A stretch of 64,000 nucleotides of DNA, taken from sequence record PQ671645.1. The stretch is one strand, 5' to 3'. A program made the position numbers and the translations under genes. The notes under the pieces are model-generated. The model had not been told where the DNA came from and made no database searches. It was given only the letters and a program-made list of their open reading frames with translations. The stretch is from Escherichia phage DCP548. Of the stretch, positions 18,080 through 49,508 are shown piece after piece (the first letter of the stretch is position 1; each line of letters starts with the position of its first letter).

Positions 18080-18550
18080 TTAATCATGTTTCCACACCCC
18101 ATCGGTATTTGACCAAAGTCGCTGATTATCTGATCCTCGCCACAGTTTTTTGGTCGGAAGATTTTTCTCATACTTCCCATCAATAATAACATCAACATAT
18201 TTAAGCATTTCTAGTTGTTTAATATCTTCAAACTTATATCCTGTCCACAACCAAATGCTTTTATTGGGATAAAGATTTTTTACTGTTTGAGCAATGCAAT
18301 GAACAACATCTCTGTTATCGGGATAGAGAGGGTCTCCTCCAGTTATAGTTAATCCTTCTATATAATCATTATTCAAACATTCAATTAATTGCTCTAGTGT
18401 TTCACCCGTGAATGGAATACCATTTCTAGCGTTCCATGTTGATTTATTATAACACCCTTCGCATTTATGCAAACAACCTGTAACGAAAAGAACGACCCTG
18501 CAACCAGGGCCATTCACAAAATCGCAAGGATAAAATCTATCATAATTCAT
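18080..18550 (-). CDS. nrdG: Anaerobic ribonucleotide reductase activating protein (radical SAM)
   Basis: 156 aa; CxxxCxxC cluster (GCLHKCEGC); T4 NrdG-like. Confidence 0.92.
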   Translation of the reverse strand: MNYDRFYPCDFVNGPGCRVVLFVTGCLHKCEGCYNKSTWNARNGIPFTGETLEQLIECLNNDYIEGLTITGGDPLYPDNRDVVHCIAQTVKNLYPNKSIWLWTGYKFEDIKQLEMLKYVDVIIDGKYEKNLPTKKLWRGSDNQRLWSNTDGVWKHD

Positions 18551-20364
18551 TGGTGTTTAACCCTATGCATGATTTCTTTATTTTTGCCGAGATTAAATCC
18601 GCGTTCGTTAGGATTTCCAAGATAACCGCATGTTCTTCTTATGGTGTTCATCTTTTTAGGGTCAGTTTCTCCACAAATAGAACAAACAAATCCGGTTTCA
18701 GTAGGAGTCATTTCATGAGTACTTCCACATGTAAAACATTTATCTACTGGCATATTAACACCAAAATAATCTAAATGTTGTGCAGCATAATCCCATACAG
18801 CCTCAAGACCTTTTAGGTTATTTTTCATATCAGGAAGTTCAACATAAGAAATATGTCCGCCAGTCGCAATGAAATGATATGGGGCTTCGCGAGAAATCTT
18901 TTCAAACGGAGTGATATTTTCTTCTACTGAAACATGGAAACTATTAGTGTACCAGCCTTTATCAGTAACATCTTTTACACTTCCATATTTCTCGGTATCA
19001 AGTTTACAGAAGCGATAGCACAGGTTTTCAGCAGGAGTAGAATACAAGCTAAAAGCAAAACCGGTTCTTTCAGTCCACTGCTTAAGACGAGCATTCATTT
19101 TGGTCAAAATTTCCTGTCCAATATCACGTCCGACAAGAATATTCAATTCGTGAATACCAATGTATCCTAAAGACACTGAACTTCTACCGTTTTTAAATAA
19201 CTCAATTATATCGTCATCAGGTTTAAGACGAACCCCAAATGCACCTTCTTGGTAAAGAATAGGAGCAACTGTTGCTTTAACACCTTTTAAAGAACTAATT
19301 CTACACATCAAGGCTTCAAAACACAGATCCATTCGTTCATTAAATAGCTCATCAAATTTCTGTTCATTGAATTGTGTTCCAATATAAGAATCTAACGCAA
19401 TACGAGGAAGATTCAGTGTTACAACACCAAGATTATTACGTCCATCAAGAATTTCATTTCCAGTCGAATCTTTCCATACACTCAAGAAACTACGACAACC
19501 CATTGGAGAAACAGGAATAGATGAACCAGTGATAGCTTTATTGTTCTTAACTGAAATAATATCAGGATACATTCTTTTGCTTGCACACTCTAGAGCAAGC
19601 TGCTTAATATCATAGTTCGGGTCGTCTTTATAAAGATTGACACCCTCTTCAATGAACATAACAAGTTTAGGGAAAATAGGAGTTATTCCATCACGACCAA
19701 GGCCTTTAATGCGGTTTTTAAGAATTGCTTTCTGAATAATTCGTTCAGTCCAGTCAGTTCCAGTACCAAATGTAATTGTTACAAAAGGCGTTTGACCGTT
19801 TGAGCTAAAAAGAGTATTTACTTCATACTCATAAGCTTGAAATGCATCGTATACGTCTTTTTCTGTTTTAGATTGGGCGTAATTCAACGCATCAGCGATT
19901 TGCCATTTTTCTGCATCCTCAATATGTTTTGCATAGGTGCGTTTAACATAAGGAGAAAGTACTTTATCTACATTAGCAAAAGTCGTTCCGCCGTACTGAT
20001 GTGAAGCAACCTGTGCGGTAATTTGTGCCATAATTGCAGTAGCAACACCAATCGATTTAGGCGTTTCAATTTGAGCATTGCCTAATTTAAATCCATTCTC
20101 AAGCATCCCCTTTAAATCGACTAAACAGCAATTAGTAAATGGAAGAGCAGGGGAATAATCAATATCATGGAAATGGATAATTCCGCTTTCATGTGCTTTC
20201 ATAATAAAAGACGGGACCATATTTTTGGCAATGTGCTTAGACACAATACCAGCCATAAGGTCCCGTTGAGTTGGAAAAACACGAGAATCTTTATTAGCAT
20301 TCTCGTTCAAAAGATCTTTATTAGTTTTATGAATTAATCCTTCAATTTCTTTTTCAATTTTCAT
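18547..20364 (-). CDS. nrdD: Anaerobic ribonucleoside-triphosphate reductase
   Basis: 605 aa; C-terminal glycyl radical motif RRTCGYLG and zinc ribbon CFTCGS...CSICG. Confidence 0.95.
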   Translation of the reverse strand: MKIEKEIEGLIHKTNKDLLNENANKDSRVFPTQRDLMAGIVSKHIAKNMVPSFIMKAHESGIIHFHDIDYSPALPFTNCCLVDLKGMLENGFKLGNAQIETPKSIGVATAIMAQITAQVASHQYGGTTFANVDKVLSPYVKRTYAKHIEDAEKWQIADALNYAQSKTEKDVYDAFQAYEYEVNTLFSSNGQTPFVTITFGTGTDWTERIIQKAILKNRIKGLGRDGITPIFPKLVMFIEEGVNLYKDDPNYDIKQLALECASKRMYPDIISVKNNKAITGSSIPVSPMGCRSFLSVWKDSTGNEILDGRNNLGVVTLNLPRIALDSYIGTQFNEQKFDELFNERMDLCFEALMCRISSLKGVKATVAPILYQEGAFGVRLKPDDDIIELFKNGRSSVSLGYIGIHELNILVGRDIGQEILTKMNARLKQWTERTGFAFSLYSTPAENLCYRFCKLDTEKYGSVKDVTDKGWYTNSFHVSVEENITPFEKISREAPYHFIATGGHISYVELPDMKNNLKGLEAVWDYAAQHLDYFGVNMPVDKCFTCGSTHEMTPTETGFVCSICGETDPKKMNTIRRTCGYLGNPNERGFNLGKNKEIMHRVKHQ

Positions 20365-28268: not shown

Positions 28269-28535
28269 TTACTTATCGCACTTAGCAACATAATTAGGCA
28301 TATCACAGAATACGGAGCGAGTAACTACTCGGCCCTTTGACCATGCTTCAGTTGCTTGTCCGGCGGTGCTATTAATATAGCTTGATCTAATGTTCTCAAT
28401 ACCCTGAGAATGTGATGCATTTACCGAACCATTAGAAGGCCCAGAAGACTGGTTACCACCAGCTCCTGCACCCGTGGTAGCACCAACAGAGAATGCCATC
28501 ATTACTGCGAATAAACCAATTACTAATTTTTTCAT
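28269..28535 (-). CDS. Small secreted protein
   Basis: 88 aa; N-terminal signal peptide (MKKLVIGLFAVMMAFSVGA); G/S/N-rich. Confidence 0.4.
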   Translation of the reverse strand: MKKLVIGLFAVMMAFSVGATTGAGAGGNQSSGPSNGSVNASHSQGIENIRSSYINSTAGQATEAWSKGRVVTRSVFCDMPNYVAKCDK

Positions 28536-35581: not shown

Positions 35582-35847
35582 TAGTATTTTTCCTCAGGTC
35601 GAAATACTGCACGACAGGCCCACATGCTGGCTTCTTTTAGATGTTGCTTAGCATACTTAAGAGCCTGCACTGCATCCATATCTTCTTTGGTTTGTTGCTC
35701 TGATTCATTTTCTTTCAAGATATATGCTTCTTCAATCAGAGCATCAAACATCAATCCAAGACGGACTTCTGCGTCTTTAATAGCGTTCACTTTACTGATT
35801 TTATCATCGGTATGTGGCTTGTAGCCTTTGATGTCTTCAATCGACAT
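35581..35847 (-). CDS. Hypothetical protein (vs.x region; Acb2/Vs.4 candidate by size and position only)
   Basis: Track ORF trimmed to the internal Met ([10 protein letters not shown]...), about 88 aa. Confidence 0.3.
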
Positions 35848-36061
35848 AAGGAATTTCCTCATAGGTGGCAAGGTCATATTCGACCAATTGGATAGGCTCA
35901 TTAATACCATATCCGCGTACAGTGATATCGGTTGACGGATATTTTCCAGTAATATCACCCGTTCTAAATGCTTCAATGAATGATTGCTCGCCTGAGCAAC
36001 CAAACCAGGCGGCAAAACATTTTAAAACATCTTCAGACCCTTCTATAATCAATTTAGCCAT
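35837..36061 (-). CDS. Hypothetical protein
   Basis: 74 aa ORF. Confidence 0.35.
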   Translation of the reverse strand: MAKLIIEGSEDVLKCFAAWFGCSGEQSFIEAFRTGDITGKYPSTDITVRGYGINEPIQLVEYDLATYEEIPYVD

Positions 36062-36423
36062 TATAGACTCTCAGTAAAGGTACGAGCGATAACGTCGCGC
36101 TGCTGTTCCGGAGTCAGAGAGTTAAAGCGAACTGCATAACCGGATACACGGATGGTCAGCTGCGGATATTTTTCCGGATGCTTAACTGCATCTTCCAGAG
36201 TTTCGCGACGCAGAACGTTAACGTTCAGGTGTTGACCACCTTCAATTTTAACTTTAGGTTGATGTTCAATTTCAATTTCACGAGCATGCAAACCGTAGAA
36301 AATTTCCGGGTCTACAATAGCATCTTCTTTAAAAGTCTTAGAGACAATAATCCGGGCTTGAGTACCGTCTTCAAAATAAATAGTGCCTTTATGTGCACCT
36401 TCAAGAATTTGATATGCTTTCAT
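36061..36423 (-). CDS. grcA: Autonomous glycyl radical cofactor (GrcA/YfiD-like; T4 Y06I-type)
   Basis: C-terminal about 60 aa essentially identical to the E. coli GrcA C-terminus ([59 protein letters not shown]); N-terminal half is phage-specific. Confidence 0.85.
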
Positions 36424-36429
36424 ATAACC

Positions 36430-36738
36430 TCAATTAGAAAATAAATTTATCCAAGATTTTTCTTTAATCAAAAATGGGTCGGAATTAAACGCCATTAAAC
36501 TTTGAGTGATTAATCCCTTAAATGGCCCATCAATAAATTCCATTTTGAAATGCGGAATACTAGTCATCAACTGTGCATTAGGAGCGGTACAAAGAACCTG
36601 CTGCCCTGCGAACGGACCTTTAGTCAAACGATATCGTTTAGGTTTAAAATGGTAAATCTCATAATTTTCTACAAGAGCCCTTTTATTGCATACTGGGCTG
36701 CTATAACAATACTCAAAAACTTCAATAGTTGTCATCAT
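36430..36738 (-). CDS. Hypothetical protein
   Basis: Track ORF trimmed to the internal Met. Confidence 0.35.
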   Translation of the reverse strand: MMTTIEVFEYCYSSPVCNKRALVENYEIYHFKPKRYRLTKGPFAGQQVLCTAPNAQLMTSIPHFKMEFIDGPFKGLITQSLMAFNSDPFLIKEKSWINLFSN

Positions 36739-39720: not shown

Positions 39721-40179
39721 TTATAGGATGGTAGTGAGCACCTTATATAATGATTTGCCCATTACATATTCCCACTGAGAAGGTTTAATTAAAGCGAATG
39801 CATCAAATTCAGGAATCTGTCGTCCGTCTGGGAACGTATGATAGGAATTACAAACACTGTTTCTGAATTGCTCGTGCTCTACAGGGATGGTATATAGGAA
39901 CAGATGAATATTCTTATTGTCTGAGTAATGATGTTCACCTAGGTCTTTCAGGAAGGCGGGGTCATATTGTGTAAACCCAGTTTCTTCTTCGCATTCACGA
40001 ATAGCGGCTTCGATAGGAGATTCACCGGGCTCGACACGACCTTTAGGAATATCCCAGCGATGAGCTAATGCACCTTTAGGACGAGAACCAGTTACACGCC
40101 CCATGAATAATTCTTTATCTTCGGTAAGGAAAATAATACCAGCTGATAATTCTTTCACTTTATTTTTCTTACTCATCAT
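39721..40179 (-). CDS. nudE: Nudix hydrolase
   Basis: Nudix box GRVEPGESPIEAAIRECEEETG; downstream of e as in T4. Confidence 0.8.
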   Translation of the reverse strand: MMSKKNKVKELSAGIIFLTEDKELFMGRVTGSRPKGALAHRWDIPKGRVEPGESPIEAAIRECEEETGFTQYDPAFLKDLGEHHYSDNKNIHLFLYTIPVEHEQFRNSVCNSYHTFPDGRQIPEFDAFALIKPSQWEYVMGKSLYKVLTTIL

Positions 40180-40893: not shown

Positions 40894-41579
40894 TACCAGC
40901 CTTCCATAGGGAATTCCAGATAAACTTGAGCGTTGACACGAATTTCGTTGGTAATCTTTTTAACTCGGTCTGTATTACGAGATACACGTCCGAACCAACG
41001 CCATCCATTACTAATTGCACGAGAACCAGTGTGCCATGTTTGCCAATCAAACTGAAGAAGAGTACGGTCTGGAGCTTCCCATTTCTCTAGTTCGCCTTTT
41101 TCGATTTTTTCGAGGACTTCTTTGTGCCACTGGCGATAGATAAGTTCGCCATCAGGAATCTGACTGAACTCTGCAGTTCCTGTTGCAAAATGAGTAGGAC
41201 ACACATCAGCGTTAACAAGACCAAGAATATGTTCAGAATGGTAACGAGGGTTGTCATAATCAGGTTGTCCTGCAGTAATAAAGTGTTGACCAACCGGAAT
41301 ATCCGGGCGTGGTACATCATCATGGTGATAACCTGGGATAGCAGGGTACCAACCGGGCATCAGCATGTGGACTCGTGAATCAAATACAACCTGGTCGGTG
41401 TTCCAATCATCAGGCAAGTTCATGATGAAGCTGCGAGTAATAGGACCACCGTTATTATAAGCAAATTCTAAACTACAGTTGAAGAACATAGGCTCGTTTT
41501 TAATCTGGTCATTTTTAATCGCATGAGCAAAACCACCTACTGCACGAGCTTGACTATTAAACACTTTAGAACTATTCAT
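40893..41579 (-). CDS. Hypothetical protein; possible Fe(II)/2OG-dioxygenase-like fold (weak)
   Basis: Start moved to the ATG with SD (MNSSKVF...). HHDD ... H ... R pattern is only suggestive. Confidence 0.35.
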   Translation of the reverse strand: MNSSKVFNSQARAVGGFAHAIKNDQIKNEPMFFNCSLEFAYNNGGPITRSFIMNLPDDWNTDQVVFDSRVHMLMPGWYPAIPGYHHDDVPRPDIPVGQHFITAGQPDYDNPRYHSEHILGLVNADVCPTHFATGTAEFSQIPDGELIYRQWHKEVLEKIEKGELEKWEAPDRTLLQFDWQTWHTGSRAISNGWRWFGRVSRNTDRVKKITNEIRVNAQVYLEFPMEGW

Positions 41580-47943: not shown

Positions 47944-47972
47944 AAAAAAAGCCCCAACCTTTCGGAAGGGGC
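47944..47972 (-). terminator. Rho-independent terminator (GCCCC/GGGGC stem plus U-run)
   Basis: Third copy of the hairpin family; closes the structured RNA region at 47973-48284. Confidence 0.6.
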
Positions 47973-48284
47973 TATGCCTTGCGGCAACCTTGTCGGGGTT
48001 CCACCTGCTAAGGCAAGTGTTTGTACGAAACGCCGGGATTCGAACCCGGTTATTAAGCAGTTGACGCTACTCAATATTTTTAAAAGGCCATATCTCGACC
48101 ATATCCGAACGTTCCGTCAAAAACGCTACTCGGCTTACGGCAAAGATATTTCCTCGAATCGATAATTCTGTGCGCCGTTTCTGCTGTGATGTAAGGGGAT
48201 ATTAACAAATCGTAAAGATTTATTAAGACCAGTCCTTACGCAGGGAACATCAGTCCGACGACTTACCGGTAGCGACCCGGCTTC

Positions 48285-49433: not shown

Positions 49434-49508
49434 TGGTGACCCTGGCTGGTTTCGATCCAGCTACCTATCAGTTATGAGCTGACAGCTCTCCCATTGAGCT
49501 ACAGGGCC
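49434..49508 (-). tRNA. tRNA with anticodon CAU (Met, or Ile if lysidine-modified), CCA encoded
   Basis: Hand-folded cloverleaf: acceptor GGCCCTG/CAGGGTC, D-stem GCTC/GAGC, anticodon stem GTCAG/CTGAT with loop CTCATAA, T-stem GCTGG/CCAGC, 3' ACCA. T-loop ATCGAAA is atypical. Confidence 0.7.

Follow-up and report, generated by a model that had tools for sequence, protein, structure and literature searches.

The window analysed here, a 64,000-nucleotide stretch of Escherichia phage DCP548 (PQ671645.1), comes from a T4-like phage of the Mosigvirus type, and the 2.5 kb surrounding its vs.6 gene are 97% identical to vB_EcoM_G53, ATK47 and mar005P1. The gene order vs.8-vs.7-vs.6-vs.5-regB is shared by the window and its annotated relatives, with denV also close by, and the same arrangement is found in T4 (NC_000866, 63557–63919). 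Judging by this synteny and by the 113 of 120 amino acids (~94%) at which the window and T4 proteins are identical, vs.6 is the ortholog of T4 Y06I, an autonomous glycyl radical cofactor; RefSeq already annotates the gene as GrcA in both T4 and ATK47. The features considered below, given in window coordinates, are:

36061–36423, minus strand: vs.6 coding sequence, 120 aa (open reading frame; Pfam, TIGR04365 and 6OWR matches; synteny), ortholog of T4 vs.6/Y06I by the comparison above
36246–36423, minus strand: 5′ half of vs.6, gene nt 1–178 (residues 1–59 and base 1 of codon 60), of phage type and homologous, though diverged, to the GrcA N-terminal half (from GC content, pS/dN and hhalign)
36071–36245, minus strand: host-identical putative conversion tract, gene nt 179–353 (codon 60 position 2 to codon 118 position 2), 175/175 to K-12-type E. 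coli grcA
36061–36070, minus strand: phage-type tail comprising the third base of codon 118, codons 119–120 and the TAA stop (GAG AGT CTA against GAA AGC CTG in E. coli)
36139–36141, minus strand: Gly95 codon within the motif RVSGYAV, predicted glycyl radical site, equivalent to GrcA G102 and PflB G734 (from alignment to GrcA and 6OWR)
36428–36431, minus strand: GAGG, putative Shine-Dalgarno sequence found by inspection, 4 nt 5′ of the vs.6 ATG and overlapping the vs.7 TGA stop (36430–36432)
35837–36061, minus strand: vs.5, 74 aa, downstream neighbour, whose start overlaps the vs.6 stop (TAATG) (open reading frame; synteny)
36430–36738, minus strand: vs.7, 102 aa, upstream neighbour (open reading frame; synteny)
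18547–20364, minus strand: nrdD, anaerobic (class III) ribonucleotide reductase, a second glycyl radical enzyme, for context only (PF13597, E = 2.5e-170; PF01228; synteny with ATK47)
18080–18550, minus strand: nrdG, radical-SAM activase of NrdD, for context only (PF13353, PF04055)

A Pfam search with the vs.5 and vs.7 proteins returned no family. The single tRNA gene that ARAGORN reports in the 64 kb is a tRNA-Met (CAT) at 49434–49508 on the minus strand.

A spare-part cofactor gene

The vs.6 product has the layout of a small stand-alone cofactor, with a variable N-terminal half followed by a C-terminal glycyl radical domain within its 120 residues. The Gly_radical family PF01228 matches residues 60–101 (profile positions 65–106 of 106; E = 2.1e-18), and the structure of YfiD (PDB ID: 6OWR) aligns with residues 21–120 (E = 1.8e-42). 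The GrcA profile TIGR04365 (spare_glycyl) covers residues 18–120 with 158.6 bits (E = 8.1e-47), a score below the equivalog cut-off of 170 bits, so we place the protein in an ortholog group of phages that belongs to the functional family, and not among the bacterial GrcA equivalogs; the shortfall probably reflects the diverged N-terminal half. The glycyl radical domains of PflB and TdcE have the same fold and motif as the vs.6 protein, and residues 696–759 of PflB align to phage residues 57–120 (E = 3e-26).

YfiD/GrcA and Y06I are known as “spare part” cofactors (Wagner et al. 2001; Bowman et al. 2019; Andorfer et al. 2021, PMC8683613). According to the summary of Wagner et al. (2001) in PMC8683613, both T4 Y06I and YfiD, when radical-loaded by the activase of pyruvate formate-lyase (PFL), bind oxygen-cleaved PFL and restore its activity in vitro, in agreement with the statement in the first-pass annotation of this DNA that the T4 homolog rescues oxygen-damaged enzyme. 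Residues 1–60 of YfiD are disordered, yet they are needed for binding to cleaved PFL and for efficient activation, while residues 61–127 make up the structured radical domain (PMC8683613). The radical site in GrcA is G102, and the G102 radical abstracts a hydrogen from C419 of PflB (PMC12338860).

Like YfiD, the window protein is predicted from the alignment to consist of two parts, a variable N-terminal half and a structured C-terminal half. Its C-terminal 60 residues are identical to those of E. coli YfiD/GrcA, including the radical glycine of RVSGY (60/60, vs.6 residues 61–120 against GrcA residues 68–127), whereas its N-terminal half is 7 residues shorter than that of GrcA and ~31% identical to it. 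Its function would be that of Y06I, with the radical carried on Gly95, as suggested by the 94% identity of the two phage proteins.

Extent and composition of the host-like segment

The first-pass annotation had proposed that the 3′ half of this glycyl radical gene is identical to that of the host and visibly richer in GC than the DNA around it, and both observations hold when the gene is aligned to E. coli grcA. The last 183 nt of vs.6 are identical at 179 positions to grcA of E. coli strain 1190, and within them gene nt 179–353 match a K-12-type allele (strain ER1709) at 175/175 and the strain 1190 allele at 174/175. Between this tract and E. coli grcA dS is 0 over 43 synonymous sites. Immediately 5′ of gene nt 179 the identity to E. 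coli grcA is lost (pS 0.81, which is saturated; dN 0.67), placing the breakpoint at gene nt 178/179, or GrcA residue 67/68, close to the domain boundary of YfiD (residues 60/61). The GC content is 50% in the 3′ half (GC3 43%) compared to 34% in the 5′ half (GC3 20%) and 37.2% in the window as a whole, and a sliding scan of the 64 kb has its maximum at 36066–36240, the tract being in the top 0.06% (z = 3.35) of all segments of 175 nt. Neither the identity nor the composition is thus that of a divergent homolog set in matching flanks. When the window was compared by megablast to 5,426 complete E. coli genomes, positions 36053–36245 were the only part that matched. Other GC peaks of the window are nearly as high (0.50, at 47967–48141, 39933–40107, 28313–28487 and 41263–41437), and these have no megablast match in the 5,426 genomes.

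Phage lineages that lack the tract are 70–84% identical at the nucleotide level to host grcA over the same segment, and by our own arithmetic a perfect run of 175 nt at 80% identity has a probability of ~1e-17; together these values exclude chance. We also considered pflB and tdcE as donors and rejected both, as they are only ~79% identical to the tract at the nucleotide level, and the donor is therefore grcA. Most E. coli genomes match the vs.6 query at 2–3 places by blastn and at 1–2 by megablast, with at least one genome having 21–22. Direct inspection found grcA and pflB among these matches, and the third place is presumably tdcE.

At its 3′ end the tract stops 10 nt before the end of the stop codon, leaving a tail that differs from E. 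coli at 3/3 synonymous sites, that is phage-type in Tequatro-, Mosig- and Jiaodavirus, and whose TAA overlaps the ATG of vs.5. Beyond the tract, the DNA downstream of vs.6 bears no resemblance to the host locus. The GAGAG within the tail is a possible ribosome-binding site of vs.5; T4 has GAAAG at this place.

Donor alleles and the number of exchanges

In the tract segment, the dS of E. coli grcA is 0.42 to Citrobacter, 1.24 to Salmonella and 1.39 to Yersinia while the protein barely changes, showing that synonymous sites here are free to drift. The phage tract is nearer to E. coli grcA than is the grcA of any other sampled bacterial genus, and in a neighbour-joining tree of the tract (built without bootstrap) those of Tequatrovirus and Mosigvirus nest inside E. 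coli. Both the tree and the distance matrices computed separately for the 5′ half and the tract group the tract with hosts and the rest of the gene with phages. On these comparisons the tract is a recent copy of E. coli grcA, the donor allele being of the K-12 type.

The same tract is present at ≥95% identity in ~640 independent phage records, including the T4 reference. We sampled six Escherichia grcA sequences for polymorphism, and the sites that vary among E. coli strains proper (192 A/G, 219 C/T and 282 C/A) are polymorphic for the same bases in phages. The allele of E. coli strain 779 (282A) is matched at 175/175 by at least five phage records and that of strain MIN6 (192G), again at 175/175, by at least nine others. 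The tracts of RB51 and of the phage loci L096 and L098 correspond to the 1190 allele and that of the window to the K-12 allele, giving four E. coli alleles with exact counterparts in phages, across phage genera. This recurrence within E. coli rests on three polymorphic sites, and parallel mutation together with recombination among phages could mimic part of it.

Several individual phages add detail. The vs.6 gene of T4 (L177:1558–1920) has one non-synonymous change, R73H (CGT to CAT), inside an otherwise host-identical tract, which reaches nt 356, three bases further 3′ than that of the window. The Yersinia phages PYps32T and PYps47T (H118, H119) and the Hafnia phage IsaacDaniel (H134) have tracts that are 175/175 identical to E. 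coli alleles. Yersinia grcA is only ~84% identical over the segment, and the tracts of these Yersinia- and Hafnia-named Tequatroviruses may report a recent E. coli or Shigella host. Between the window and RB51, a Tequatrovirus, dS is 0.023 in the tract and 0.40 in the 5′ half of vs.6, compared to 1.2 in vs.7 and 1.6 in vs.5. Accordingly, vs.6 as a whole may have been exchanged among phage genera at a later time than the genes beside it.

A further set of donors is found for Jiaodavirus, where the 5′ half of vs.6 is 36% GC and the 3′ half 55–57%, and where the protein reads LLDAVEH, the Klebsiella-group GrcA signature, at the site that is LEDAVKH in E. coli. Our first host panel, the 80 GTDB species closest to E. 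coli GrcA, did not include K. pneumoniae, and its members are only 89–91% identical to the Jiaodavirus tracts. These values first suggested an old event, a reading overturned by the exact donors that emerged from a scan of metagenomes. The scan used a degenerate pattern for the LLDAVEHPEKYPQ signature and returned 73 loci. Its commonest host allele is found on 20 chromosomal contigs and encodes exactly the GrcA of K. pneumoniae, and an allele on 2 contigs encodes exactly that of Raoultella, the host taxa being assigned by exact protein identity to named database entries and not by contig taxonomy. On the host contigs, which are 54–56% GC, ung adjoins grcA, whereas the phage contigs L194 and L189 are 40% GC and align to Jiaodavirus flanks. 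Over gene nt 181–338, L194 matches the K. pneumoniae-type allele at 158/158 positions, and over gene nt 190–344 L189 matches the Raoultella-type allele at 155/155. The two contigs differ at 3 of 178 positions in the 5′ half and at 12 of 149 in the tract, the latter being the distance between the two host alleles themselves. Phage JEC has a three-site haplotype (225T-234T-237C) in common with another Klebsiella allele, and the tract of phage PSE-D1 looks like a mosaic of two. Taken with the E. coli phages, exact matches to donors of three genera and to four E. coli alleles indicate more than one exchange. The ends of the tract also vary by event (5′ at nt 179, 181 and 190; 3′ at nt 338, 344, 353 and 356), as is expected of independent recombination events limited by local homology.

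The searches also returned three kinds of locus that are best set apart. A typical enterobacterial grcA lies on “plasmid unnamed4” of Klebsiella sp. WOUb02 (L023, 275 kb), which could be a chromid or a mis-assigned replicon. Another enterobacterial grcA, in a contig of Vagococcus sp. WN89Y (L032), an assembly labelled as a Firmicute, could be contamination. Several of the IMG/VR contigs L164–L173 have an ORF of up to 260 aa with a PflB/TdcE-like C-terminus and 48–52% GC, and resemble pieces of a host pfl gene, or DNA next to a prophage, more than they do a phage GrcA gene.

Several histories could place host-like DNA in a phage gene. The first-pass annotation had taken vs.6 for a chimera built from a captured host fragment, that is, one piece of host grcA fused to an unrelated, phage-specific N-terminal ORF, and the sharp break in identity and GC at gene nt 178/179 and the poor plain pairwise alignment of the N-terminal halves would fit such an event. 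The N-terminal half is indeed phage-type in composition, but it is not unrelated to the host protein, since hhalign matches the phage and host GrcA N-terminal halves with a probability of 93.3% (E = 2.7e-7, 48 columns, 31% identity) and the TIGR04365 match begins at residue 18. With a dN/dS of ~0.14 between the window and RB51, this half is under purifying selection. Moreover, full-length homologs of the same length with a diverged 3′ half are found in six other lineages (Karamvirus, Slopekvirus, Pseudotevenvirus, Krischvirus, Aeromonas phages and T5-like phages), where that half is 70–84% identical to any host grcA and shows little or no GC step. The homology of the N-terminal halves and these diverged genes elsewhere argue that the phage family owned the whole gene long ago. 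As the tract also ends before the stop codon, with no host flank captured alongside, and has had at least three donor genera at the same site, we consider capture and fusion very unlikely; on the alignments, vs.6 is instead better described as the product of gene conversion of a resident phage homolog. That extreme purifying selection, reaching synonymous sites through codon bias or RNA structure, has preserved host identity in an anciently acquired gene would agree with the near-invariance of the C-terminal 60 residues across Enterobacteriaceae and phages, and grcA is a highly expressed, codon-biased gene. Such selection is at odds with the synonymous divergence of the segment among hosts, with the 70–84% identity seen in the other phage lineages and with phage tracts that each match an individual allele from E. 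coli, K. pneumoniae or Raoultella. We give this reading hardly any credence, as it is already refuted by the dS between hosts and by the pair L194/L189.

The number of conversions is a finer question. There might have been one per host genus, subsequently spread by recombination between phages, with the polymorphisms shared with E. coli arising by parallel mutation. T-even phages recombine readily with each other, the Tequatro- and Mosigviruses have the 5′ breakpoint at nt 179 in common, the lower dS of the vs.6 5′ half relative to its flanks (0.40 against 1.2–1.6) hints at phage-phage exchange, and just three sites tie E. coli alleles to those of phages. However, each of the three sampled E. 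coli polymorphisms, one of them a C-to-A transversion, is found with identical bases in phages, the matches to four host alleles are exact over 175 nt, the JEC haplotype and the mosaic-like PSE-D1 tract also speak against so few events, and the breakpoints differ between events at both ends of the tract. So few events are, in our judgement, unlikely, though this is the most credible of the alternatives. Transfer in the opposite direction, from phage to host, or an artefact of assembly or contamination, can be practically dismissed, given that the tract has the GC and codon usage of the host, that host grcA sits in a conserved ung-grcA context with divergence that follows host taxonomy, and that the tract recurs in so many independent phage records, T4 among them. 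Recurrent conversion itself is well supported by these sequence comparisons, and we think it very probable that host grcA has repeatedly replaced the 3′ tract of vs.6, in itself a known phage spare-part gene. Some of the conversions could date from laboratory propagation and not from nature.

Possible mechanism and significance

Under the reading of repeated replacement, a full-length grcA homolog would have been long resident in the phage lineage, its 5′ half drifting to phage composition while 150–175 nt of its 3′ half were overwritten again and again by the grcA of the current host. The route might be homologous recombination or templated repair with fragments of host DNA during infection. 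The near-invariant C-terminal 60 residues would keep nucleotide similarity high enough for recombination to start, and a converted tract, being perfectly homologous to the host, would make further conversion easier.

During infection, oxygen would cleave the host PflB at its radical glycine, and the host activase PflA would then install a radical on Gly95 of the phage protein. The PFL repaired in this way would keep fermentative energy flowing and might also sustain formate, a possible reductant for the anaerobic ribonucleotide reductase that the phage itself encodes (nrdD/nrdG in the window). T4 NrdD belongs to the NrdD1 subtype, which we take to be the formate-using one. Formate can directly serve as a ribonucleotide reductase reductant (PMC5704485). 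PFL rescue may thus feed phage dNTP synthesis at low oxygen.

The conversions within a host species are synonymous, so the process could be neutral. Between hosts, residues 77/81 are E/K in E. coli phages and L/E in Klebsiella and Raoultella phages, two amino acid changes that set Klebsiella-type tracts apart from the E. coli type and through which host matching would be possible. It is conceivable, if somewhat doubtful, that the tract is a hot spot that adaptively matches the protein to the PFL and PflA of the local host and records the last host species or allele.

The closest known analogue is the psbA mosaics of cyanophages, where intragenic recombination between host and phage produces patchy GC (Zeidner et al. 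2005; Sullivan et al. 2006, both as cited in PMC3900582). As in psbA, a host-derived metabolic gene of T4-like phages has host-GC patches and takes part in exchange between host and phage pools, and in vs.6 too a patch of host composition lies in a gene of phage composition. Unlike psbA, the patch in vs.6 is a single defined tract with reproducible ends that is letter-perfect to present-day host alleles, and independent replacements have drawn on at least three host genera, in enterobacterial T-even phages that degrade host DNA. In the literature searched, whose coverage was incomplete, we found no description of recurrent host-to-phage conversion, or of a mosaic origin, for vs.6/Y06I/grcA; the papers that came up on these genes and proteins were biochemical. 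What is already known is the function of vs.6; what is new is the recurrent overwriting of its tract by the host.

Strictly lytic phages that destroy the DNA of their host nevertheless carry perfect copies, 155–175 nt long, of present-day host alleles. In vs.6, the best-studied phage family thereby offers a clean case of gene conversion from host to virus that is still going on and can be approached by experiment. Such tracts call for care in annotation and host prediction, where a pipeline might mistake them for contamination or for a sign of lysogeny. The tract is also a possible natural marker of the recent host of a phage. If the more tentative idea of adaptive matching is true, the phage protein would keep fitting the PFL and PflA of its local host, and the tract would tell which host species, down to the allele, the phage lineage had last replicated in.
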